From Candidatus Poribacteria bacterium (GTDB taxonomy: Bacteria > Poribacteria > WGA-4E > WGA-3G): a DNA stretch of 64,000 bases. Under the pieces are notes generated by a model. That model saw only the letters and a list, made by a program, of their open reading frames with translations. It was not told where the DNA came from and searched no databases. The stretch is from positions 8,919 to 72,918 of the forward strand of contig PYIY01000190.1 in NCBI GenBank assembly GCA_003635195.1. The letters run 5' to 3'. The translations under genes and the position numbers were made by a program. Every line of letters starts with the position of its first letter. The stretch's first letter is position 1. Shown in pieces: positions 3,737-22,899 of the stretch.

Positions 3737-6700
3737 ATGGCAATTCGTGTAGCAATCAACCATAAATCCCTTTACCAATATGACCGACTCGTCGGTTTGT
3801 CGCCACACGTTTTTCGATTGAGACCCGCCGTCCACTGTCGAACACCTATTGAGGCTTACTCGCTCAAAATTGAACCTGAAAATCACTTTATCAATTGGCA
3901 GCAAGACCCATTCGGTAATTATCAAGCCCGCGTCATCTTTCCTGAACCCACACGCGCCTTATCTATTGAAGTAGATCTCATTGCGGATATGACCGTTATC
4001 AATCCCTTCGATTTCTTCCTTGAGGCGAATGCCGAACACTATCCATTTTTCTATGAAGCACAACTCCGAAAAGAATTAACCCCATTCCTTGAAGTGAAAG
4101 AGAACGGTCCACTGCTGACAGCATGGTTAGCAGGTATCCCGCGTACAAACAAGAAAATGATCGATTTTCTCGTTGACATCAATCGGTCCCTGTCGGAAAA
4201 TGTAAAATACACTATTCGGATGGAACCCGGGGTACAGTCCTGTGAGGAAACGTTGGAAAAGCAGATTGGCTCATGTCGCGATACTGGGTGGTTGCTCGTT
4301 CAAATTTTGCGACACCTCGGTTTAGCAGCTCGCTTTGTCTCTGGCTATCTCGTCCAACTTGTTGCCGATCAGAAACCTGTAGAGGGCCCCGCTGGTCCCG
4401 CCCTGGACTTTACCGACTTGCACGCATGGTGCGAAGTCTACGCACCCGGAGCAGGATGGATAGGTTTGGACCCAACATCCGGACTGCTTGCCGGTGAAGG
4501 ACATATTCCGTTAGTATGCGTCCCGGATCCGGTGAGCGCAGCACCCGTCACAGGCTACACAGATCCGTGTGAAACTGTATTCACCTACAGCAACACTGTC
4601 CAACGTATCCGCGAAGACCCACGCGTCACGAAACCCTACACCGACTCAGAGTGGGCAGATATTAACGCCCTTGGTCAGCAGGTTGATCGAGACATAACTC
4701 AAAACGATATTCGTTTGACAATGGGCGGCGAACCCACTTTCGTCTCAATTGACGATACGGATAGCCCAGAATGGGATACAGAGGCGGATAGTCCCAGAAA
4801 AAGAGAGTTAGGAGCAAGGCTCCTACGCCGTTTGCAGAACAGCTTCGGACCCGGTGGCGCACTCTATTACGGGCAAGGAAAATGGTACCCCGGTGAACCG
4901 TTACCGCGTTGGAAATTCGGCTGTTTCTGGCGTAAAGATGGTGTACCCATTTGGCGAAACGATGAACTCTTCGCTGAACCTGACAAAAATTACGGATTCG
5001 GTATTGAAGATACCAAGCGGTTTATAGATCGTCTCACGGAGCGGTTACATATCGCTACGCATCGGGTGGTACCGGCTTACGAAGATGCACTCTATTTCCT
5101 CTGGACAGAAAATAGACTGCCCGTCAACATCAATCCGCTCGACTTTGACTTCAAGGAAGCGTCCGAACGCCAGCGACTCGCGCAGCTTCTACAAACAGAA
5201 ACCCTCGGCGAGCCGATCGGCTACGCGTTACCCTTACGTTGGAACCTCGTAGACGACGTTTGGGAGAGTTGTGTGTGGACGTTCTCGGATGGACGTATGT
5301 TCTTAATCCCCGGCGATTCACCGATAGGATTTCGTCTACCATTGGAGTCTATACAATGGGTGCCACCTGAAAAGCAAGAAACAGGTTACGAACGTGACCC
5401 ACTTGAACCGCGTGGGGAAAATTTAGACACAATAGGGCAAGCGAACGCCCAAAATGTGCCTACGTTGAAACATGAAGACCGCACACTGACCACAGAAAAT
5501 GACGAAGAGGAGACGGTTTTTCAGACAGCGCTCTGCGTTGAACTCCGTGAGGGTAGGTTATACATCTTTATACCGCCTCTGACGCATCTTGAACACTATC
5601 TTTCGCTCCTTGAAGCCGTCGAAGCAACTGCTGAATCGTTAGATATGCCGGTAATTCTCGAAGGGTATGAAGTGCCACACGATTGGCGCATTCAATCCTT
5701 GAATGTGACACCTGATCCGGGCGTGATTGAGGTAAACATCCATCCAGCAGAAAACTGGGACGAATTGGTGTATAACACCACGACGCTCTACGCGCAAGCA
5801 CGATTAGCCGGATTAAGTGCCGAAAAATTTATGTTGGATGGTAGACACACTGGTACCGGAGGCGGCAATCACGTTATCATTGGAGGGCGTACACCCGCTG
5901 ATAGCCCCTTGTTACGGCAACCTCATCTGTTGCGGAGTCTTATCACCTATTGGCAGCACCATCCGGGTCTGTCGTATCTCTTTTCTGGGACCTTTATCGG
6001 TCCGACGAGTCAGGCACCGCGCGTGGATGAAGGGCGCGATGAACAACTTTATGAACTTGAGGTCGCTTTTGCCCAGATCCCTGATAATGATACAGAAGAC
6101 GTACCACCTTGGTTGATTGATCGGCTCCTGCGCCACTTACTGGTAGATCTTACAGGCAATACCCACCGCGCAGAGTTTTGCATCGATAAACTCTACTCTC
6201 CCGATTCGGCAAGTGGGAGACTTGGACTGCTGGAAATGCGTGCTTTTGAGATGCCACCCCATGCACAAATGAGCATCGCGCAAATGCTCTTAATTCGTAC
6301 CTTAGTCGCCAAATTCTGGAACACCCCTTACAAAGGTAGATTGGTGCGCTGGGGGACAGAACTGCACGACAAATTTATGCTTCATCATTATGTCCGGACT
6401 GATATACAGGAGGTCGTCACTGAACTTCGAGAAGCTGGATACCCATTTGAGATGGCATGGCTTGAGCCTTTTTTTGAATTCCGGTTCCCAAAATTGGGGG
6501 CTGTAAACGTCCAAGATATTGAGCTTGAATTAAGGATGGCAATTGAACCGTGGCACGTGTTAGGTGAGGAGGTAACGCGGGCAGGGACTTCACGTTTTGT
6601 TGATTCTTCTGTTGAACGACTACAAGTGAAGGTGAGTGGACTGACAGACACCCGATACATCGTTACATGCAACGGACGACAATTAATTCTCCACAATACA

Positions 6701-7211: not shown

Positions 7212-9926
7212 ATGCAACAAGCAGATACAAAAAATTGGAAGGTGATTGCCAATAGTTATCATACAGCGAGATCGACTAATTTGCCTCACGATGAACAGAT
7301 TGATGAGATGTTAAGTCGAGATAAGCAAATCAATCCGCACTGGCACGCCTTCATGCAGGCACTTGATACCTTAGGGCTGGCAGAGATGGAATCTCGCGAT
7401 AAAGAGGTGCAGCGTCTGCTTCGTGAGAATGGTGTCACCTACGTCTTACACGGCGAACAGCACGGGCACCGCCCCTGGGAATTGGACCCTATTCCACTAA
7501 TTATTTCGAAGGCAGATTGGGAGACTATCTCTGACGGACTTACACAACGAGCGGAGCTGCTGAACCTAATCTTGACAGATCTCTATGGCGAGCGAACCCT
7601 AATCAAAGATGGGTTGATACCGCCAGAAGTGGTTTATGCGCATGCAGGGTTTTTGCGAGCCTGTGTCGGGCTTGTCCCCTCCGGATTTCCTTGCCTCTTG
7701 AGTTATGCCACCGATTTGACGCGGGGACCGGATGGCAAAATGTGGATACTCAGCGATCGGGCGCAGGCACCATCGGGAGCAGGCTACGCGCTCGAAAATC
7801 GCACTGCCCTCGCACGGGCATTGCCCAATCTCTTTGGTGAAGTCGGTGTTCATCGACTTTCTTTCTTCTTCCGCGCGCTACAAAACACTGTAGTGGAGCT
7901 ACAACATCAGCTCGAAACTGCCTCCCGTGTTGCACCGAACCAAACGGATAATCCACAGGTCGTCGTGCTGACCCCTGGGCCGCTTAACGAAACTTATTTT
8001 GAACACGCTTATCTCGCAAACTACCTCGGTTACACTTTAGTCCAAGGGGACGACTTGACGGTGTGGGATGGGCGTGTTTGGTTGAAATCGCTTGATGGAT
8101 TGCGTCCTATTGATATTATTCTCCGCCGAGTGGATGACATCTTTTGTGACCCCTTGGAGCTCCGACAGGACTCAAGGCTTGGGGTCGCAGGTTTGCTGGA
8201 AGCGATTCGACAGAGAAATGTGGTTGTCATAAATCCACCGGGCAGCGGTGTTTTAGAAAATCCGGGCTTGATGCCGTTCCTACCAGACATCGCAAAACGG
8301 TTGATAGGCGAAGACCTACGCCTCCCTTCTGTCGCAACATGGTGGTGTGGAGAACCGAAGCAGCGCGACTATGTGTTGGCAAACCTTAAAAAGTTAGTCG
8401 TTAAATCCATTCACCGTCAACCAGGGGGGCGACCACTGTTCGGAACCGAACTTGATAGTACCCAACTTGAGGCACTCCGTGATCGGATTAAGGACAACCC
8501 GCATCTCTATGTCGGGCAGGAATATATTCATTTTTCCACAACGCCTTCACTCGTTGAAGGAAAACTTGAACCCCGGCGAACGATTCTTCGTAGTTTCTTG
8601 TTTGCAGAGGGAGATGGTTATACCGTGATGCCGGGTGGACTTACACGCTGCGCAGGTGAGAAGGCTGAGTTGACAATCTCGATCCAAGATGGTGGCGTTA
8701 GTAAAGACACTTGGGTGCTTGCATCTGAACCTGAGCCGCATGTCAGTTTATGGCAGCGACGTATCACTGAGGTCCGAGGTCCGGCTTCTACAAGTCCGGC
8801 TGGATTGTCGAGCCGGGCAGCTGAGAACTTATTCTGGGTAGGTCGCTATGCAGAACGCGCAGAGGGGCAAGCACGCCTCCTACGGATTATATTGAATAAG
8901 GTTAAGATGAGCAGGATGGGCTTGGAGACTTCGCACTTAGGGCAGGGACCACCTTCCTTACTCTTTACGGAGACTTTCGGTGAAGATCAAAGAGAGGTAT
9001 CCGAACTCGCATATCTCCATAGCATGCTCCGTTCCTTGACCGGCTTAACTTCATCGCACCCCGGTTTCGTCAGCAAAGACGAACAATCATTAGAAAATCA
9101 ACTCCTTTCCATCATGCTCGACACGGAAAACACCGGCAGCTTGGTGTCTACACTTCAAGCACTCCTTAGCGCAGCTTACGCAGTCCGGGACCGTTGGTCT
9201 ACTGACACATGGCGTGTGATGAACGGTATTGAAGATCTATGTGCTGCCCTCGAAAAAAGCGTTGCCGAAGATGGCGATGCAAGTCCACAAATATTGACAG
9301 ACCTCGTCTTGCAAGAGGCGGAATTGGCTTCACTTGATCAACTCATGATTTTTCTCTCAGCATTGAGCGGACTTAATGCCGAAAGCATGACCCAGACAAT
9401 CGGCTGGATGAGTTTGGATATGGGACGGCGTATCGAACGCGCACTCCTTCTCATTGTGCTCTGTCGTTCAAGTCTTGTCGCTGTGCAAGACGAATGGATC
9501 GAAGATCTGCTGCTTGAATCTGTCCTCGCCGCTGCTGAAAGTCTCATCACTTATCGGAGCCGCTACCGTGCAGCCCTGCACTTTCCGACAGTACTTGAGT
9601 TGCTACTTCTTGATGAAGATAATCCGCGCTCGCTCCTCTATCAACTTAAATGCCTTCAGGAACAGATCCGTGTGCTTCCCAGAGAAAGACTCGGATACCG
9701 CCTCAGTGAAGAAGAACAACTTATTTTGGAGGCACTAACACAGCTCCAACTTTCCAACACCATTGATCTCGCCGAGTGTTCGGAACACACAACACAACGG
9801 AACGGATTAGAAAAACTCTTGGTCCGTCTCGCACAGATACTGATTGATATTTCTGATGTCCTGACCCATACCTATTTCAGCCACGTCCAAAGACCTCAGC
9901 AGTTGATTACAACAGACAACCTTTAG
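7212..9926 (+). CDS. fused circularly permuted ATP-grasp + alpha-E protein
   Basis: 904-aa ORF. The N-terminal half is paralogous to 1188..2657 (PGSGVLENPG, GGLTRCA, GGVSKDTWVL). The C-terminal half begins SRAAENLFWVGRYAERAEGQARLL, an alpha-E signature. Confidence 0.85.
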   Translation: MQQADTKNWKVIANSYHTARSTNLPHDEQIDEMLSRDKQINPHWHAFMQALDTLGLAEMESRDKEVQRLLRENGVTYVLHGEQHGHRPWELDPIPLIISKADWETISDGLTQRAELLNLILTDLYGERTLIKDGLIPPEVVYAHAGFLRACVGLVPSGFPCLLSYATDLTRGPDGKMWILSDRAQAPSGAGYALENRTALARALPNLFGEVGVHRLSFFFRALQNTVVELQHQLETASRVAPNQTDNPQVVVLTPGPLNETYFEHAYLANYLGYTLVQGDDLTVWDGRVWLKSLDGLRPIDIILRRVDDIFCDPLELRQDSRLGVAGLLEAIRQRNVVVINPPGSGVLENPGLMPFLPDIAKRLIGEDLRLPSVATWWCGEPKQRDYVLANLKKLVVKSIHRQPGGRPLFGTELDSTQLEALRDRIKDNPHLYVGQEYIHFSTTPSLVEGKLEPRRTILRSFLFAEGDGYTVMPGGLTRCAGEKAELTISIQDGGVSKDTWVLASEPEPHVSLWQRRITEVRGPASTSPAGLSSRAAENLFWVGRYAERAEGQARLLRIILNKVKMSRMGLETSHLGQGPPSLLFTETFGEDQREVSELAYLHSMLRSLTGLTSSHPGFVSKDEQSLENQLLSIMLDTENTGSLVSTLQALLSAAYAVRDRWSTDTWRVMNGIEDLCAALEKSVAEDGDASPQILTDLVLQEAELASLDQLMIFLSALSGLNAESMTQTIGWMSLDMGRRIERALLLIVLCRSSLVAVQDEWIEDLLLESVLAAAESLITYRSRYRAALHFPTVLELLLLDEDNPRSLLYQLKCLQEQIRVLPRERLGYRLSEEEQLILEALTQLQLSNTIDLAECSEHTTQRNGLEKLLVRLAQILIDISDVLTHTYFSHVQRPQQLITTDNL

Positions 9927-9949
9927 GACAGACGTGCAGCATTGAACCT

Positions 9950-10831
9950 ATGAACTATAAAATTACCCATAAGACTGAATACAGTTATAATCACCCCGTG
10001 AATCTCTGTTATAACGAAGCGCGCTTGACCCCCCGGAATTATGCATATCAGCATTGTAGCGACAGCCAATTAACTGTTGACCCCGAACCTGCAGAGTGCC
10101 GGGAACGCCAAGACTTTTTCGGAAACACCGTCCACTATTTCACGATCCAGCAACCCCATAACCAACTTACTGTTACAGTTACAAGTCATGTGGATGTCAG
10201 TGGCAGAGGAAGGCAACGAAATTTTGCCGAGCACTCGGCTTGGGAGGATGCGCACCTGCAGCTACACACAGATTCAGATCCAGAAATCTTAGAGATACGG
10301 CAGTACATTCTTAGTTCACCAATGATTCCAGCAAGGCCCGAACTGCATGCTTATGCTGAGCAATCGTTTACCAAAGGACGGTCGCTACAGGAAGCCGTTG
10401 AAGATTTAAGCACCCGCCTCTACAACGATTTCACCTATGACTCATATTTCACAACAATAGCAACCCCACTTGCAGATGTACTAAAATATCGTCGAGGGGT
10501 CTGCCAAGATTTCGCACACCTCGGTATCGGCTGCCTTCGTGCCTTAGGATTCGCCGCCCGTTACGTCAGCGGCTATATTGAGACCAATCCATCACCGGAC
10601 AAAGAACCTTTAGCAGGTACCGATGCGTCCCATGCGTGGTTCTCTGTCTATCTCCCACAACTTGGCTGGGTGGATTTCGACCCGACGAATAACCAGATAC
10701 CAGCTGATCGGCACATCACGCTCGCTTGGGGGAGGGACTACGCAGATGTAACCCCATTGAAAGGTGTTGTCTTCGGGAGCGGCACCCATGAATTATCTGT
10801 CTCGGTGGATTGTAAACGGGAAAATTTTTAA
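9950..10831 (+). CDS. transglutaminase-like protein (Bact_transglu_N + TGase core)
   Basis: 293-aa ORF with RRGVCQDFAHL ... DASHAWFSVY ... VDFDPTN, a Cys-His-Asp triad. Confidence 0.85.
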   Translation: MNYKITHKTEYSYNHPVNLCYNEARLTPRNYAYQHCSDSQLTVDPEPAECRERQDFFGNTVHYFTIQQPHNQLTVTVTSHVDVSGRGRQRNFAEHSAWEDAHLQLHTDSDPEILEIRQYILSSPMIPARPELHAYAEQSFTKGRSLQEAVEDLSTRLYNDFTYDSYFTTIATPLADVLKYRRGVCQDFAHLGIGCLRALGFAARYVSGYIETNPSPDKEPLAGTDASHAWFSVYLPQLGWVDFDPTNNQIPADRHITLAWGRDYADVTPLKGVVFGSGTHELSVSVDCKRENF

Positions 10832-10951: not shown

Positions 10952-11116
10952 TTATCTTCTTACAAGTGTTCACTTATTTTCGGATTTTACTATAAATCAA
11001 GCAATTGATTTCAGTTAAAATAACGCGTAGCTTGGAACGAAGTGGAAAGCGGATCTACGGAGAGGAACGTAAAAACCACCAACCCACTTAACCGAACCGC
11101 AAGGAAAATTAAAAGA

Positions 11117-11401
11117 ATGACAATTAAGGAGTTTCAGAAGCAAATCGAAGCGATTTATTATGAGCGTGATGCAGAACGAGGCGTGCCGCTTACCTTTACG
11201 TGGTTTGTTGAGGAGGTCGGTGAATTAGCAAAAGAAATTCGCAAACAGCCACAGGATATGGAACGGCTGCGCGAAGAATTTGCCGATGTGTTTGCATGGC
11301 TCGCCACATTAGCGAGTCTACTCGGTATTTCCTTAACAGATGCTGCACAAATCTATGCCGAAGGCTGCCCTAAGTGTAAAGCAACTCCTTGTAACTGTTA
11401 A
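11117..11401 (+). CDS. small MazG-like nucleotide pyrophosphohydrolase
   Basis: Track ORF 11042..11401. I prefer the ATG at 11117 (MTIKEFQKQIEAIY...). EEVGELAKE and EEFADVFAWL are MazG-type EExxE/ExxD helices. C-terminal CPKC...CNC cysteine cluster. Confidence 0.7.
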   Translation: MTIKEFQKQIEAIYYERDAERGVPLTFTWFVEEVGELAKEIRKQPQDMERLREEFADVFAWLATLASLLGISLTDAAQIYAEGCPKCKATPCNC

Positions 11402-11415
11402 GACGCAGATTAGGA

Positions 11416-12846
11416 TCATTCTGGTAACGGGCAGCTACCCTCAAATTCGAGAAATGTCGGTTCTCTGTTTATATTCAGTGACGCGCGTCGTCCCTTAAAT
11501 TTAATATTTAATGCTGCTGAATCAAGGAGCTCTATATCCAATTGAAGTATATCGTCAACAGTATTTGACAACTTCAAATACAATACTGAAATTAATCGGG
11601 CGAATTTCTTGAATCTCTCTGGCGTGTTTCTGAAACGTTGATAGAGTTCTGGAATCGGAGATGAGAATGCTTGAAGTCTATTTCCATACTGCGATGAGAG
11701 TTCGCCACGAATTTGAGCCTCTAATAACATTTGATCAAAGACAGTGGTTTGCATTACAGATGGGTTAGCATCTTCCAATTTTTCGTCAAGGAGGACTCGC
11801 TTAGCACGCATGTCGGCAACCTGATCTAAGGTCAACTGCTCCAAAATAACAGGTTCGGTACGATTTTTATACGCACTGGTCACTGTTTCTTCCTTGAGAT
11901 GAATCTCCCATACAGTCTCACACTCAGTTGAAATTTGCGCAACCTTTTGAAGTTTTACCCATGCGGCGTCTTCCTGATGGGCAAAAGCGATAGCCTCCAG
12001 TTGGTCAATGGAACTTCCAGCAGGTACGTCGCGTAAGCGTGTGCGCAATTTCCTCAAGAAGGCCACTTGTGTGGATGAATTCGGACAAAGCGTCAGAGAA
12101 ATCTCCGTTGAATCCCAGCATACCTTTTGAAAGGGAATGAAATAGTACTGTCCATCTACTGAGCGGAACAGGACACATTCATTACCTTCATCTGTCAAGG
12201 CATTAGTGTCGTGTTTCTGGTCGTGTACTGGGGTTACGGAGATAGTATTGAGAAGGCGTTGAATGCCTGCCTCCCAATTTCTATGAAGATCAACATATTG
12301 GATATCCCGCAGCGTTTCGCCTCCGCCGATGTCAATATCTGGAATCTCACATTCGTTCAATTTTACGGGAATAAACCATACCTTGTCAGCGGGTCGCCGA
12401 TGTAACTCTTCAATCGCAACTTTTAACTCTTCACTCATATACGTTTGACTGCGCGCGTTGACTTCTGTTGAGAAACAGGCGATAAAGAAATCTCCATGCT
12501 GAATCGCTTGCTGAATCGCTTGCTTCCACGGCGTGCCGGGCCCTATATTATCTCTGTCCAGCCAGATGTGGATGTCGTGTGAAGCAAGAGTTTGGCAGAG
12601 ACGATCAACAATAGTTCTGTTCTCATGACAATAAGAGATAAAAACGTGCTTCATCTCTCTGGCGTGTTTAATTTCCATGTTGATATGGTTGATTAATCGC
12701 GCTTTGAAGGCTTCGCGACGTTCTCTCCGCACTTCAAGCCCGGGACGAGCTTTGGATAAATCCGGCGGATTTTCCCGTGTGTAAGCCTCATAATCAAATT
12801 CGACTTCTTCTATAGTATCCATTGCGAATCTCCTGACTGCCCTCAT
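11416..12846 (-). CDS. TIR-domain protein with BrnA-like N-terminal peptide and an uncharacterised ~270-aa C-terminal domain
   Basis: KHVFISYCHENRTIVDRL...WLDRDNIGPG...FFIACFS...YMSEELKVAIE...WFIPVKL is a TIR fold pattern (about 12232..12651). Alternative starts are at 12822 (MDTIEE) and 12654 (MKHVFISY). Confidence 0.8.
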   Translation of the reverse strand: MRAVRRFAMDTIEEVEFDYEAYTRENPPDLSKARPGLEVRRERREAFKARLINHINMEIKHAREMKHVFISYCHENRTIVDRLCQTLASHDIHIWLDRDNIGPGTPWKQAIQQAIQHGDFFIACFSTEVNARSQTYMSEELKVAIEELHRRPADKVWFIPVKLNECEIPDIDIGGGETLRDIQYVDLHRNWEAGIQRLLNTISVTPVHDQKHDTNALTDEGNECVLFRSVDGQYYFIPFQKVCWDSTEISLTLCPNSSTQVAFLRKLRTRLRDVPAGSSIDQLEAIAFAHQEDAAWVKLQKVAQISTECETVWEIHLKEETVTSAYKNRTEPVILEQLTLDQVADMRAKRVLLDEKLEDANPSVMQTTVFDQMLLEAQIRGELSSQYGNRLQAFSSPIPELYQRFRNTPERFKKFARLISVLYLKLSNTVDDILQLDIELLDSAALNIKFKGRRASLNINREPTFLEFEGSCPLPE

Positions 12847-13078
12847 ACGCAGTGATTAAACGATGAATTTCTGCATCCTCTGGAATGTAGATAATTACCA
12901 AGATACGATTAGTGACGCTTTTTCCTATAAACATCCACCGGTCCGGGTGCCCTTACGGATCGGGACCGTCATATCCATCTGGATCGTCAAACGCAGAAAC
13001 GACCTCATAAAATTGAACATTGTGCCTCCTCTGCACTTCCTGATATTTATCCTCATCCCATATAAACCCAATGTCCAT
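12794..13078 (-). pseudogene. BrnT-like (DUF497) toxin gene interrupted by one in-frame TAA
   Basis: Minus-strand frame reads MDIGFIWDEDKYQEVQRRHNVQFYEVVSAFDDPDGYDGPDP-TAA-GHPDRWMFIGKSVTNRILVIIYIPEDAEIHRLITAYEGSQEIRNGYY... Both halves are in the same frame and match the BrnT pattern (F.WDe.K...HgvsF.Ea..vF.Dp ... iG....r.l.vvy......iRiIsAr). Confidence 0.6.
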
Positions 13079-13151
13079 GCAGTGAACCCCATACATATAC
13101 GTGATGATTGGAACTGTAAGAAATCCCTTTAAGCATTCTACCACAAGTGCG

Positions 13152-14423
13152 TTAATTCCCGTTCAAAAAATGCTCAAAGTTGCCGCCGAATAGATTGTTG
13201 ACATCCCGTTCAATCTCTGATGAATTGAGTGTCCACCCGACATCAAGCAGCGTTTGGTATTTTTCCACCAGAACATCAGCGATAATCCTACGCGAGTGCT
13301 TCCATTTGTAGACGAGTTGATCCAAGATTCGGGCATCGGAATGCTGCGGGATGACACTCAAGCCGAGCAACTCAATCCGCTCACGTGTGATCTCCTCAAT
13401 AACACTCGGATTATTCATAAACCACCAACACCCGAATATCATCAGGTTCTTGAATTTCCGACCGACGACGCATAATTCATGCTGATTTTCACGCGATAGG
13501 AGCGTCACAAGGAACTTATTATCTGGGTTTTCACGGAGTAACGTTTCCAAGCTCGTCAGATCCGCCTTTCCACTACCGTCGCCTGCCATTTGGAGTTGCG
13601 GATTAACGGCGCGTTTCACACCGATCATTAGTGCAAACGGGACATTGAATTCACGCGAGATGGGTAGTATACAGTTGTCGAACAGTCTACCCAAAACACC
13701 ATCATCTGGGTATTGAAAATCTGGCGGGAGAGAAACCGCCATGTACTTCGGGTTCATCCGTTGAATCCACGCCTCCAAAAATCGGCGGATTTCCTTGTAA
13801 GTTTTTTCTGTTGATAGATTCGGATCAACATCATAGCCGAGACCCCGAAGGTGTTCGTAACCAGTTTCCTGATAGGTATTGATGAGGACATCCATCCGCA
13901 ATGCTGCCTCAAAGCGGGCATCACCCGTTTCGCCTGACTGCCACACCGGTGCCTCTGTCGAGTCAAACGGGTCGTTCGTCATTACAACTTTAGAGACTTT
14001 CGCACGTTCAAAAACTGTGTCAATAAAGGCTTCAACGGTTGTGTCTGCAAAGTAGTCGCGATAGTCCTGCAGATTGCGCGAACCGACATCCAACCCCAAT
14101 TCATTTAAAGTCGTCACAACACCCCGGCACGCTTCACTCACTGGTGAGTTCTCAATGAAGAGCGTCTGCCAAATGAGATCTGCCTGTTCTGCCTTTGTCA
14201 TCGCCCAAAATTGATCGTACGAGGCATCCGATTTACGGAACACTTCAGCGATAAGGTAGTGATACGTCAGCAATTCATCTATGCCCCACAGTAACAACTC
14301 ACCGAAGGGCGGACTAAAAAGATGCGTGTGAATATCTGTGATGCTTTGTATCTCAACAGCATCTAAAACGGCGGTTTTCAACTGTTCTGTAGTAGCAATT
14401 GTTTGCGTGTGGTTTGCGTTCAT
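13152..14423 (-). CDS. uronate (glucuronate) isomerase-like amidohydrolase
   Basis: 423 aa. ITDIHTHL metal motif, ELLTYHYL, and the C-terminal FGCWWFMNNP...SDARILDQL parallel UxaC FGSGWWFND...TDSRSF. Confidence 0.65.
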   Translation of the reverse strand: MNANHTQTIATTEQLKTAVLDAVEIQSITDIHTHLFSPPFGELLLWGIDELLTYHYLIAEVFRKSDASYDQFWAMTKAEQADLIWQTLFIENSPVSEACRGVVTTLNELGLDVGSRNLQDYRDYFADTTVEAFIDTVFERAKVSKVVMTNDPFDSTEAPVWQSGETGDARFEAALRMDVLINTYQETGYEHLRGLGYDVDPNLSTEKTYKEIRRFLEAWIQRMNPKYMAVSLPPDFQYPDDGVLGRLFDNCILPISREFNVPFALMIGVKRAVNPQLQMAGDGSGKADLTSLETLLRENPDNKFLVTLLSRENQHELCVVGRKFKNLMIFGCWWFMNNPSVIEEITRERIELLGLSVIPQHSDARILDQLVYKWKHSRRIIADVLVEKYQTLLDVGWTLNSSEIERDVNNLFGGNFEHFLNGN

Positions 14424-14498: not shown

Positions 14499-15521
14499 TT
14501 ATAAAACAGAACTGAACGGTGGATATTCCAATCCCCATTGCGTTCTGGCAACATCCATAGTTTTGATAATAGATAGAGACTCATCTAATGGCATCACATC
14601 ACTTTCGAGTTTATCCGCTCGTAAACAGTTGATAACCTCAAGTACTTGGTATTCAAAACCGTTGTCAATAAATGGGATTTCAATTTGTAGGGGTTCTTTC
14701 CCAAGGACTTCAAGTGTTGCGGAGGTCGCTCGTGAAAAGTTCGGGATATATATTGACCCTTTTGTGCCGAAGATACGTGCATCTTGTGAGGTGCGTGTCG
14801 TGATTGCACACGACAAACTCGCAATTTGGCCAGCATCATAGCGGAGTAGGACAGCGGCTTGTTCATCAACACCGGTTTCGCCGATGTGTGCCAGACTCGT
14901 TATCTGCGTTGGCACGCCAAACACCATGGACGCTAAGGAGACAGTATAGACCCCAATGTCCAACATTGCACCACCTGCAAGTTCCAGCGCAAACAATCTA
15001 CCTTTCATATTCTCAGCCGTCAGTACGACCCGATTCCCAAAATCTGCCGTTAACATGCGCGGTTCACCGATCACACCATCTGCCAGCCATTCCCGAACCT
15101 TAACCATTACTGGAATAAAACGGGTCCACATGGCTTCCATGAGGAATTGCTTATGTTCGCGTGCACACGCGATCAACGCCTCAGCCTGCTTCACATCCAC
15201 AGTGAGAGGCTTTTCACATAAAACCGCTTTCCCTGCTTCCAAACACAACATCGCACACGCTTTGTGAAACGGGTGTGGTGTTGCAACGTAGATAACATCT
15301 ACCTCACAGTTATTCGCCAGTTCAACGTAATTACCGTGTCTATGTGGAACATCAAACGTATCAGCGAATGCATCAGCTCTCTTGAGGTCGCGTGAACCAA
15401 CAGCAACAATCTCAGCGTCAGGAATCGCTTTCAGGGCAGTGGCGAACTTATGAGCAATACCACCAGGACCGAGCATACCCCACCTTATCTTTTTTTTCAT
15501 CTGGATATCCATTTTTAACAA
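14499..15521 (-). CDS. Gfo/Idh/MocA family NAD(P)-dependent oxidoreductase
   Basis: IRWGMLGPGGIAHKF Rossmann N-terminus and EKPL motif (LCEKPLT). The alternative start MKKKIRWG is at 15500. Confidence 0.8.
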   Translation of the reverse strand: MLKMDIQMKKKIRWGMLGPGGIAHKFATALKAIPDAEIVAVGSRDLKRADAFADTFDVPHRHGNYVELANNCEVDVIYVATPHPFHKACAMLCLEAGKAVLCEKPLTVDVKQAEALIACAREHKQFLMEAMWTRFIPVMVKVREWLADGVIGEPRMLTADFGNRVVLTAENMKGRLFALELAGGAMLDIGVYTVSLASMVFGVPTQITSLAHIGETGVDEQAAVLLRYDAGQIASLSCAITTRTSQDARIFGTKGSIYIPNFSRATSATLEVLGKEPLQIEIPFIDNGFEYQVLEVINCLRADKLESDVMPLDESLSIIKTMDVARTQWGLEYPPFSSVL

Positions 15522-21600: not shown

Positions 21601-22813
21601 TGGTCCCTTGGACACGCTCGACTGGCAACGTATTGCTACCGGGCTGAACCAACCGCTTGGGCTTAAAATTGTCGGACAGCAGATTTACGTTGTCGGACGC
21701 GACCAGATCACCCGCCTCGTTGATCTCAACGCAGACGGCGAAACCGACTTCTACGAGAATTTTAACAATGACACCTACAACAGTGAACACTTCCACGAGC
21801 AGGTTATGGACCTGCAGACCGATGCAGTGGGTAACTTCTACTACATGAAATCTGCCCGACATGCACTGCCTGCGCAACACCCGCACCACGGCACACTCAT
21901 TCGAGTGTCGCCGGATGGGGAACAGTCTACTGTAATCGCTTACGGATTTCGCGCATCAAACGGGCTTGGAATCGGTCCCGGTCCTACGTTCTACGGTACA
22001 GATCAGGAAGGCTACTGGATGCCTGCCAACCGCCTGAACCGTATCACTGTTCCGGGTAGATTCTACGGGAACCGCTGGGGTTGGTATCCACCGAGCGAAC
22101 CGACAGACAGCTATGAGCCGCCCCTCTGCTGGATCGCTCCCTTCGTTGACCGATCCCCGGCGGCACCGGTTTGGATTCCCGCCGGTACCTGGGGGAAAAT
22201 GGGCGATTCGCTACTCTCGCTGAGTTACGGCACTGGAAAAGTATACGCTGTCCTTCAGCACCAAACAGAGGCAACTGTACAAGGCGCACTCACCGAGCTC
22301 GGTGTGGAGCTGCCTACTGGAGTGATGCGTGGAAGATTCCATCAGATCAGTGGAGACCTCTATCTCGTGGGTCTATTCGGCTGGTCGTCCAACAAACAAG
22401 AAGATACCGGTTTCTACCGGATCCGCATGACTGGTACCCCCCTCCGAACCCCTAAATCGTTCCGTGCTGTCAGCGGTGGATTAATCATCAATTTCTACAC
22501 ACCGCTTTCACCGGAGTCCGCCCAAAATCCAGAGAACTGGCGGGTGCAAAGTTGGGAATATCGCTGGACTGAACACTACGGTTCGCCACAGCTTAAGCGT
22601 TCCGGCGAGGAGGGTAGGGACATCCACCCTGTCCAATCTGCAACGCTCTCCGAGGATGGCAAAACCGTTTTCCTCAAAATTCCAAGCCTGACACCTACAA
22701 TGCAGTTCCACGTCAACATCACGGGCAGCTTCGCAGACGGCATCCCCTTGGATTGCTATCTGCACGGCACAATACACACCCTCGAAGATGGACATAGCAC
22801 GGAAGCTCCGTAG
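18698..22813 (+). CDS. giant secreted multidomain protein (ThuA-like N-domain, LamG/concanavalin-like domain, beta-propeller-like C-region)
   Basis: 1371 aa. Hydrophobic leader, then ThuA-like PHLVFVVGENEYRSE...TTMGHPEDF. LamG-type LIGHWRFNEGSG...LDDLHLYNRALSPDEM. The C-terminal region resembles the membrane-bound dehydrogenase domain of Planctomycetes and Verrucomicrobia. Confidence 0.65.
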   Translation: MSSSCFPFNVSAPSAKRISIYLLDLLFALCIFTSIGHAQPHLVFVVGENEYRSEVTMPALAQVLADHYGFRTTLLRDDVLQGGEANNINGLEALETADLLVLYLRFRQLPEAQLALLQKYIDRGGPIVAFRTTTHAFAYEENDQQAVWWNNFGARELGAPWIYHYGHEASTDATIVGSHPILTGVSPAFHVRSWTYHVRPDYPPKDAQVLVQGRPVFPEGERGGAETVNPVAWTHTHSGGGRVFTTTMGHPEDFRVSDFRRLVVNGIYWCLNREAPRRYPPGWRVKTGQPWRDMDYGPYLSTAVAANPNNLTYKGLVIPLTPDLASGAVVFDTDLLRYSAGWIDGLIDFVDVAYNGWHQSFPSIEGKLLWENPVGPGWAKNGSFEDTRTVPFGPLPKDWAHWKGLYLHGNHVVLSYTVGTRSVLETPSLESGEKGFAFARTFHLGPSASSALVRIATFRAGEVCALHEFQRGTGVALCPPGAAPGAQGSLFAALIDAPKGARWTVKDELRVRFPPSEQAISAKILIAPVIQDTLELDVWTQFVETSPPVVDLTKLIRGGPQRWPEKLVTVGDIDIQQQLKVETLKINAETATWDFKKDGYLPTVLSIDNLSPVLGDVGRADQCIAVLRPPTKTTQSASAGEQKSDAALIGHWRFNEGSGSHAVSTPPAEAAIVLDGVRWEAGQSGGSLAFNGGAEARFDENLALDFDTTDLTFAAWISTENDGTIFAESLEASEWVPNGKTFFIRDGNLTFDVGWVGVIGGAAGGGQSVDDGTWHHVGLTWRHQSGAVTLFLDGEIAAKGILKPEAPLEDDVWRLGFTASDFPEESPWFEGQLDDLHLYNRALSPDEMHTLYQRLREPPLIAAALVEPIAGAKWRVDTERISLDQPADTTASVLIWEGSESKLPDFARLAANDGLDPGQPFAIDKINWPAQNPWASWLRFGGFDFFPDGNRAALSTWNGDVWTVTGLNGPLDTLDWQRIATGLNQPLGLKIVGQQIYVVGRDQITRLVDLNADGETDFYENFNNDTYNSEHFHEQVMDLQTDAVGNFYYMKSARHALPAQHPHHGTLIRVSPDGEQSTVIAYGFRASNGLGIGPGPTFYGTDQEGYWMPANRLNRITVPGRFYGNRWGWYPPSEPTDSYEPPLCWIAPFVDRSPAAPVWIPAGTWGKMGDSLLSLSYGTGKVYAVLQHQTEATVQGALTELGVELPTGVMRGRFHQISGDLYLVGLFGWSSNKQEDTGFYRIRMTGTPLRTPKSFRAVSGGLIINFYTPLSPESAQNPENWRVQSWEYRWTEHYGSPQLKRSGEEGRDIHPVQSATLSEDGKTVFLKIPSLTPTMQFHVNITGSFADGIPLDCYLHGTIHTLEDGHSTEAP

Positions 22814-22814
22814 C

Positions 22815-22837
22815 GGGTTTTTGCTTGGGTGTTTCTT
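22815..22837 (+). repeat. short copy of GTTTTTGCTTGGGTGTTTC repeat module
   Basis: gggtttttgcttgggtgtttctt lies directly after the stop codon at 22813. Confidence 0.55.
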
Positions 22838-22899
22838 ATAGCGTTACCCAGTCTTCATTTCGGTTTGACAATTTGAAACATTTCGGATACCCTATTGAT

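Follow-up and report, generated by a model that had tools for sequence, protein, structure and literature searches.

A BrnT-type toxin gene paired with a TIR-domain protein that carries a putative BrnA-derived head in Candidatus Poribacteria

In the BrnT/BrnA toxin-antitoxin pair of Brucella abortus (PF04365/PF14384), the toxin gene comes first and the gene of its partner overlaps the toxin's 3' end. The ribbon-helix-helix (RHH) domain of BrnA is C-terminal (PMC11980606), and the autorepression described for BrnTA is exerted via this DNA-binding domain. In a survey of RelE/ParE proteins, the BrnT-BrnA fusions listed all involve RHH or HTH domains, and TIR is not mentioned (PMC11980606). Here we analyze a two-gene cassette from a Candidatus Poribacteria genome (assembly GCA_003635195.1, contig PYIY01000190.1, positions 8,919 to 72,918). 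This stretch of 64,000 nucleotides (nt) is referred to below as the window; window coordinates are given for the whole of it throughout, and both cassette genes are on its minus strand. The cassette has in common with BrnT/BrnA the toxin family, the toxin-first order with the overlapping partner, and a partner whose residues 1-51 are homologous to the N-terminal half of BrnA proteins of one subfamily, the homology reaching as far as the RHH beta-strand. It differs in the remainder of the partner, which is 468 rather than about 100 amino acids (aa) long and which has a TIR domain and a further 255-aa domain instead of the RHH helices (the C-terminal domain of PF14384). Moreover, a promoter of the cassette's own is not evident, and autorepression by a pair that appears to have no RHH domain is unlikely. 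The original prediction, an annotation made from the DNA letters alone, stated that it did not know this architecture as described. Our literature searches on BrnT with TIR, on bSEFIR and on antitoxin-TIR fusions agree with it, as they returned no such architecture; those on antitoxin-TIR fusions gave operon-level combinations of toxin-antitoxin and defense genes. The single paper in which BrnT and a TIR domain are both mentioned is unrelated. The parts are all of known kinds and their modular exchange is a known theme; it is this combination that we did not find described.

Among defense proteins, the closest analogue appears to be bSEFIR of Bacillus sp. NIO-1130, an anti-phage protein encoded by a single gene (Millman et al., preprint 10.1101/2022.05.11.491447). 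Like other single-protein TIR-like NADase defenses, it consists of an N-terminal TIR-superfamily domain and a C-terminal domain of 230-260 aa (about 400-430 aa in total), a layout that it shares with the partner protein. However, the match of the window protein to the bSEFIR model (PADLOC PDLC03957) covers the TIR part only (E 4.6e-9, residues 56-238, profile 25-203 of 412), and its best Pfam match is TIR_2, whereas Millman et al. call a protein SEFIR when SEFIR scores above TIR. Furthermore, bSEFIR has neither an antitoxin head nor a toxin partner, and the two may or may not have a C-terminal domain in common. The best profile and fold matches of the TIR domain itself are to SPARTA TIR-APAZ, Thoeris ThsB and CRISPR Cat1, with the catalytic glutamate aligned. 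Unlike in SPARTA, the C-terminal domain of the window protein is not an APAZ domain, and the whole-protein Foldseek comparison with TIR-APAZ chains gave a TM-score of about 0.23. CapRel-type fused toxin-antitoxins and Panacea-domain antitoxins follow the same principle of toxin-antitoxin parts joined to sensing or defense modules. Such recombination of parts with sensing and defense modules has been described repeatedly (PMC11980606, PMC13064477, PMC13069673), and toxin-antitoxin-chaperone systems and PezAT-Hachiman operons resemble the cassette in this respect. The cassette differs from these modular systems in that its portable piece would be the predicted toxin-binding head of the antitoxin, placed on enzymatic or repeat bodies.

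The BrnT-family RNase toxin gene has 94 codons (window 12794-13078, minus strand) and runs from the ATG at 13078 to the stop at 12794-12796. It was called BrnT-like in the original prediction, and its translation indeed matches the Pfam family BrnT_toxin (PF04365) at E 3.8e-13 with 50 bits (cut-off 34.5) if a single in-frame TAA is read through. The assignment is further supported by matches to toxins in the PDB, namely 7vd7 (E 1.8e-4 with the single sequence and 5.5e-8 with the family profile) and, with the family profile, 3u97. Residues D8, E9, K11 and R47 align to D6, E7, K9 and R41 of the Brucella BrnT, which are four of the five residues required for RNase activity. The nearest relatives outside Poribacteria are 48-65% identical. 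A tblastn search of plasmids with the window BrnT gave no match, and the canonical BrnTA pairs were found with the toxin sequence of PDB entry 7vd7 instead. Another BrnT-like tblastn match, at 22690-22839, is weak and lies inside a 1371-aa open reading frame (ORF); we consider it spurious.

The break in the BrnT gene of the window is a nonsense codon (Gln42, CAA to TAA, at 12953-12955) and not a frameshift. Position 12955 is an A in the window and a G, corresponding to CAA, in every related contig (four sponge metagenome runs). Hence, the stop is private to this assembly, where it may be genuine or an assembly error.

The overlap of BrnT with a 476-aa ORF (11416-12846, minus strand), also part of the original prediction, is present, but the real product is most probably shorter. 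The second ATG of this ORF is at 12822 (MDTIEE...). The best 120 homologues listed are mostly 453-473 aa long, with 56-91% identity, and those that were aligned begin at the equivalent of this ATG. In addition, an AGGAG Shine-Dalgarno sequence at 12830-12834 precedes it by 7 nt, whereas the ATG at 12846 has none. Judging from the homologues and from the Shine-Dalgarno sequence, the real start is therefore the ATG at 12822. The predicted product is a three-part protein of 468 aa (BrnA-derived head, TIR domain and C-terminal domain; 11416-12822, minus strand, from homologue alignments), and the overlap between the 3' end of BrnT and the 5' end of the partner gene, as read from the sequence, is 29 nt (12794-12822, minus strand). 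The same overlap geometry is found in BrnT loci outside Poribacteria (L020-L027, L037-L062 and L071-73). A start at M65 (12654), which would leave the head untranslated, was excluded, as residues 1-57 are conserved and under purifying selection and the homologues start at the equivalent of 12822. Low-depth metatranscriptome contigs cover both genes; some of them cross the BrnT/TIR overlap and some the junction between BrnT and the amidohydrolase gene upstream. These junction-spanning contigs are compatible with co-transcription, although DNA carry-over could also explain them. A promoter and terminator scan produced nothing above shuffled expectation and no promoter-like site upstream of BrnT.

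The head comprises residues 1-57 of the partner (12652-12822, minus strand) and was delimited by hhalign to the BrnA-type partners of a sister BrnT clade. It has the motif T-x-EE-x-EFDY-x2-Y-x5-P-x2-S-x2-R-x-G-x-E-x4-RREAF, after which a remnant of the beta-strand and first helix of the RHH domain is still recognizable (KARLINHINMEIKHAREM), and residues F9, D10, Y11, R35, F39 and L43 are invariant across 83 homologues. The resemblance of the first ~45 residues to BrnA that had been claimed could not be seen directly: a Pfam scan of 19 N-termini of the family found no BrnA_antitoxin (PF14384) match at E<=10, and hhalign of the head with six canonical plasmid BrnA proteins found no similarity (probability 0.3). 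It becomes visible only via an intermediate, the partner subfamily of the sister clade. The partners of the nearest BrnT relatives outside Poribacteria open with the same motif (MNTT.E.EFDY..Y.....P.PS.I.RGPEAR.KRREA), and their start overlaps the 3' end of BrnT in nearly all loci, mostly by 29 nt. Those from soil and other metagenomes are 102-113 aa long and continue as ...AKARITIRIDAEIIEQFK....G.GYQSLINQALREWL. They are above the Pfam BrnA_antitoxin threshold (E 7e-14, 3e-12 and 3e-15), and hhalign aligns the RHH part of these proteins to canonical BrnA with a probability of 97.7%. Residues 1-51 of the TIR family, in turn, align to the first 51 residues of these partners with an hhalign probability of 99.1% (E 1.5e-18, 45% identity), and the alignment extends into the RHH beta-strand (KARLINHINMEI against KARITIRIDAEI). 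Because the sister-clade partners are BrnA_antitoxin-positive and match residues 1-51 of the head, the likeness to BrnA holds, and the TIR protein is, as far as its sequence tells, a BrnA in which the RHH helices have been exchanged for a TIR domain and a C-terminal domain. With the RHH domain of BrnA being C-terminal, the N-terminal half is the remaining candidate for toxin binding. The confidence of the AlphaFold2 (AF2) model in the head is low (predicted local distance difference test score, pLDDT, of 48-65), as is expected of a segment that would fold on binding.

The RHH position is occupied by a TIR domain, as the original prediction had it, and of the RHH domain only the relic of the beta-strand remains. 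The TIR domain spans residues 58-200 (12223-12651, minus strand), as determined by Pfam, profile and Foldseek matches. Pfam TIR_2 is matched at E 8e-27 (residues 68-199 of the 476-aa ORF) and Pfam TIR at 0.011; SEFIR is not matched. A phmmer search of the PDB with the single TIR sequence gave no match, and the family profile was required. The TIR part of this profile is closest to the TIR domains of SPARTA TIR-APAZ, Cat1, PdTIR, Roq1 and AbTir, and it matches BtpA and TcpB weakly. Foldseek with the full-length AlphaFold model returned TIR matches only, at a probability of 1.0. In the family-profile alignment, E132 (12427-12429, minus strand), which is part of a nearly invariant EEL motif (E131, E132 and L133 are conserved in at least 90% of the sequences), aligns to E77 of the CrtSPARTA TIR chain, which we take to be the catalytic glutamate of SPARTA. 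The domain thus appears to have a TIR fold with a conserved glutamate at the catalytic position, as in enzymatic prokaryotic immune TIRs, and may well be an NADase. TIR NADases are generally activated by assembly. In the predicted model, helix 28-56 of the head runs into the first TIR strand at residue 59.

A variable linker (aa 201-213; 12184-12222, minus strand; pLDDT <50) leads to the C-terminal domain (CTD; aa 214-468, 255 aa; 11419-12183, minus strand), which was delimited by a profile search and the AF2 model. The original prediction had described the C-terminal part as ~270 aa of unfamiliar fold, and we find this to be a fitting description of the final ~255 residues. They have no Pfam, NCBIfam or PADLOC match (NCBIfam holds no model for this domain), and in a Foldseek comparison of the CTD model with the PDB no entry matched the domain as a whole (TM <= 0.27). 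Local similarities to PilZ, Hcp and tail-tube barrels were too weak to be of use. The model itself, calculated from a diverse alignment, has a pLDDT of 90.7 and a predicted TM-score (pTM) of 0.89, and shows a beta-barrel, a helical region and then a three-stranded sheet. A profile of the CTD (residues ~206-468) found 523 clusters (50% identity) at E<=1e-3, and in almost every listed match the domain forms the C-terminal end of the protein or lies close to it. The domains found N-terminal to it in 94 members include TIR_2 (64), SEFIR (32), Pfam TIR (16), DUF4062 (8), CAP12/Pycsar TIR (5), PNP (4), CHAT (4), caspase (3) and nucleotide cyclase (3), and deaminases occur singly. As these effector domains, which are typical of defense proteins, interchange in front of a constant domain, the CTD is presumed to be a constant sensor or regulatory domain behind swappable effectors. 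The PADLOC bSEFIR model is matched by 43 of the 94 proteins; one of them, P0244, matches it at E 2e-75 over profile positions 35-367 and has a CTD 44% identical to that of the window. These matches at first suggested that the CTD is the C-terminal domain of bSEFIR. When CTD segments were scanned by themselves, however, neither that of the window protein nor those of P0244 and four further proteins matched a PADLOC model, and we therefore regard bSEFIR as an analogue of the window protein rather than as its family. With at least 523 clusters, a confidently predicted fold and no solved relative, the CTD represents a large unnamed family and a candidate sensor in single-gene defense proteins.

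A genome scan identified 19 loci, every one of them in metagenome-assembled genomes (MAGs) of Candidatus Poribacteria, which are sponge symbionts. The gene order of amidohydrolase, BrnT, TIR gene and convergent MazG is repeated in all 18 syntenic loci, and in each of these the TIR gene is directly preceded by BrnT sequence, so that the adjacency seen in the window holds in its relatives. The BrnT/TIR geometry is identical in the 15 undisrupted loci, and the cassette is disrupted in the other three. The cassette evolves faster than its flanks, the TIR protein being 55-92% identical across the syntenic loci compared to 85-95% for the amidohydrolase. In contigs of three sponge metatranscriptome runs (X21, X22 and X24) the site is empty: 1771-1820 nt are missing relative to the window, and the amidohydrolase stop at 13152 is joined to the MazG end at ~11370-11380. 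Hence, the cassette is not fixed, and it is a presence/absence polymorphism among related Poribacteria. Its full extent, 11402-13151, was derived from the synteny of the 18 loci and from the contigs with the empty site, and an insertion between sugar-metabolism and MazG-like genes, as had been proposed, is what these contigs and the flanking genes display. On one side is the amidohydrolase-like gene (13152-14423, minus strand), which has weak similarity to glucuronate isomerase and ends 73 nt before the BrnT ORF; on the other is the MazG-like gene (11042-11401), convergent on the 3' end of the partner gene. Neither the cassette nor its flanks, in the window and the 18 syntenic loci, contain a cognate Thoeris or SPARTA partner (ThsA or a short pAgo), an Argonaute or a CRISPR gene.

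Across Poribacteria, the ratio of nonsynonymous to synonymous substitution rates (dN/dS) is 0.13 for BrnT, 0.13-0.15 for the head (calculated from codons 10-57, which are outside the overlap, at a dS of about 1), 0.14 for the TIR domain, 0.15 for the CTD and 0.66 for the linker. BrnT, head, TIR and CTD are therefore all under purifying selection, and the linker is relaxed. Both genes are intact in 13 of the 19 genomes; BrnT is stopped and the TIR gene intact in three, and both are broken in the remaining three. An intact BrnT next to a broken TIR gene was not found (hypergeometric p 0.02, for a small sample of phylogenetically non-independent genomes). Such an asymmetry of decay is what toxin-antitoxin logic predicts. 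BrnT is thus stopped in three of 16 otherwise intact cassettes, the stops of L007 and L013 being at Trp codons. In P0111, P0114 and one X1 contig (window 12824-12980), most of BrnT has been deleted independently, each time in frame, so that the first BrnT codons are fused to the TIR protein (MDIGFV...::...EFDY). In L015, L016 and L018 the cassette is wrecked through insertion sequence (IS) insertions or frameshifts. In the first of these loci (L015:1100-5000, OZ251998, Poribacteria), a frameshifted TnpB/OrfB-like IS is located in BrnT after about codon 12, and a 448-aa transposase gene is inserted in the TIR gene after about aa 197.

The divergence of BrnT tracks that of the head (partial r 0.52, Mantel p 4e-4, 16 genomes) and is not correlated with the divergence of the TIR domain or the CTD in the same genomes, a relationship predicted by co-adaptation of toxin and head. 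Two comparisons indicate recombination within the locus. L011 is a mosaic, in which BrnT and the head are window-like (91% and 83% nt identity) and the TIR domain, the CTD and the flanks are L012-like (locus coordinates 4745-6404). Between L004 and L005, only BrnT differs (71%), and the rest of the cassette is 90-96% identical.

From the computed homologies of the parts, the domain replacement, conservation, selection, gene order, catalytic residues and decay pattern, we infer the binding of the toxin by the head, the NADase activity, the sensing by the CTD and the anti-phage role that make up the following model. We give an even chance to the idea that the cassette is a hybrid, in which a type II toxin-antitoxin pair is combined with an abortive-infection effector consisting of a single protein. 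BrnT would be a RelE-like RNase toxin, and the second gene would have begun as its antitoxin BrnA. The latter would have kept the toxin-binding N-terminal head of ~50 residues and lost the RHH domain, whose place was taken by the TIR domain and the 255-aa CTD. The two genes would be translationally coupled and co-transcribed, probably together with the upstream amidohydrolase gene as no cassette promoter is evident. The head of the TIR protein would bind and silence BrnT one-to-one, and the TIR-CTD body would be an NAD+-consuming effector, the CTD of which detects a cue of infection and brings about the assembly of the TIR domains. As the antitoxin head is built into it, the defense protein could not be lost while BrnT is active. 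With antitoxin and effector in one polypeptide, loss of the defense protein would free the RNase: if a phage degraded or inhibited the TIR protein or shut off its synthesis, BrnT would be released as a second, RNA-cleaving arm.

A number of observations weigh against this model. In several lineages BrnT has been knocked out or deleted and the TIR gene is visibly unchanged, so the TIR protein functions in the absence of BrnT, or is at any rate retained. The three cases in which both genes are broken would likewise result from the joint decay of a dispensable locus, and the correlated divergence of BrnT and head could be produced by physical linkage alone. The head has no detectable similarity to the N-termini of canonical plasmid BrnA proteins, and its role as the toxin-binding element is suggested by exclusion and context; the PDB matches to BrnT include no BrnT-BrnA complex. 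RNase activity is uncertain as well, given that the E7-equivalent position is variable within this BrnT subfamily. Finally, no PADLOC model recognizes the system or the CTD, and in Poribacteria the cassette is flanked by housekeeping genes, with no defense island there.

The head is the one constant feature beside this clade of BrnT, and the bodies attached to it vary. Apart from the TIR-CTD body, it is combined with an RHH domain in L039 and L042-L062, with TPR repeats in proteins of 140-312 aa (L024-L027, 3257-~4195), and with FRG and TPR in a protein of 455 aa (L041:3257-4621). In two lineages, a Gammaproteobacteria MAG (L020/L037) and L071-73, the head stands alone as a protein of 55-63 aa behind an intact BrnT, and in L049:935-1258 the partner of an intact BrnT is made of two tandem heads and nothing else (108 aa). 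Since a head by itself can follow an intact toxin, it may well be sufficient. Several of the non-TIR head loci are surrounded by restriction-modification, Abi, PIN and Pycsar-type TIR genes. An hmmsearch found the head in none of the CTD-family proteins from outside Poribacteria. Tentatively, and with the greater weight on the side of doubt, we propose that the BrnA head of ~45 residues serves as a portable adaptor for docking the toxin, and that evolution has repeatedly used it to attach the BrnT RNase to scaffolds with various sensor or effector functions. The scaffolds would be TIR-CTD in Poribacteria and TPR arrays or FRG-TPR in other sponge-associated bacteria. If so, such "toxin-armed" immune proteins would form a class of their own: the RNase would be freed once the scaffold recognizes a ligand, assembles or is destroyed, and in the TIR version a single sensor would fire NAD+ depletion and RNA cleavage together.

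Three minor observations concern these head loci. The TPR arrays that occur with the head end in a conserved tail (..GEWEKA..DII..F..YESV.DFE..NGV.LP.DIAAMLT). The neighbors of the TPR and FRG-TPR loci include genes of Eco57I-type restriction-modification, a cNMP-binding CAP12-type TIR protein, PIN, and PLD/SNF2 proteins. A low-coverage contig (L035:225-583) has an internally deleted BrnT followed by a head with a truncated RHH domain (P0399; Pfam BrnA E 6e-4), and is a decaying BrnTA of intermediate type.

The variety of bodies also bears on a different explanation, in which BrnT and the head are a selfish toxin-antitoxin module fused to an independent TIR-CTD protein and stabilize the cassette with no cross-talk between the two parts. 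A head that occurs as a stand-alone partner of 55-63 aa would be self-sufficient, and its presence on bodies as different as TPR and FRG-TPR argues against a mechanism specific to TIR. Where BrnT is inactivated or lost by deletion, the TIR gene remains intact and under constraint, and the cassette is a present-or-absent insertion, both of which agree with mere addiction. We nevertheless find this explanation rather unlikely. The fusion is in frame and the head is as constrained as the body across a divergence of 56-92%, so the physical link seems to matter, and the loss of the RHH domain removes the autoregulation that a purely selfish toxin-antitoxin pair normally needs. The hierarchy could also be the reverse, with BrnT as a regulatory or sensor subunit that docks on the head and keeps the TIR domain inactive and unassembled. 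This is improbable in our view, and so is its corollary that the NADase is released when BrnT is titrated away, e.g. by phage RNA or a phage protein. The direct abutment of head and TIR domain in the predicted model, the activation of TIR NADases by assembly and the variable E7-equivalent of BrnT are all consistent with such a brake. However, its loss would be lethal, and yet the TIR gene is intact in lineages whose BrnT is stopped or deleted; moreover, BrnT has retained the D/K/R catalytic equivalents, and the purifying selection on it is strong.

The TIR protein might also be a "eukaryote-like" effector that acts on TIR/Toll signaling of the sponge in the manner of TcpB/BtpA, with the BrnT link being incidental. 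This would suit a sponge symbiont, a family that among the matches listed is seemingly confined to Poribacteria, a chromosomal and syntenic cassette outside any defense island, and the weak profile matches to BtpA and TcpB. We consider it very improbable. The catalytic glutamate and the best TIR matches (SPARTA and Cat1) point to enzymatic prokaryotic immune TIRs, and the CTD is common to proteins of many non-symbiotic bacteria, where it follows caspase, CHAT, PNP and deaminase domains. No signal peptide or secretion-associated feature turned up, although no dedicated search was made, and this scenario leaves the antitoxin head and the toxin-antitoxin-like decay unaccounted for. Still less credible, and already disfavored by the selection analysis, is the view that a gene fusion or deletion accident left the head behind without a function and that BrnT is heading for loss. 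The stops in three of the 16 otherwise intact cassettes, the deletions in others and the stop in the window copy could be read in this way, but the dN/dS of BrnT and head is low over a deep divergence, the residues of the head motif are invariant, and none of the related contigs has the stop found in the window.

If, as the hybrid model has it, the head neutralizes BrnT, the partner would be a natural antitoxin in which the DNA-binding half has been exchanged for an immune effector-sensor body, and type II toxin-antitoxin biology and TIR/NAD+ immunity would be linked in a single polypeptide. The model offers a simple way in which defense genes could be made "unlosable" and guarded against phage inhibitors. 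Furthermore, the occurrence of the head alone and on RHH, TPR, FRG-TPR and TIR bodies suggests a short, transferable, putatively toxin-binding peptide. For the biology of uncultivated sponge symbionts, the cassette adds a conserved candidate defense or toxin-antitoxin system.

The neighborhood of the cassette varies in other ways. A gene of the GFO/IDH/MocA oxidoreductase type (window 14499-15521) adjoins the amidohydrolase gene. It is lacking in about half of the syntenic loci, namely L003-L006, L011-L014, L016 and L018, and thus represents a second indel in this neighborhood. Downstream of MazG, the window encodes proteins of 904 and 293 aa (7212-10831), which may be transglutaminase-like. 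This pair is syntenic in about half of the loci.

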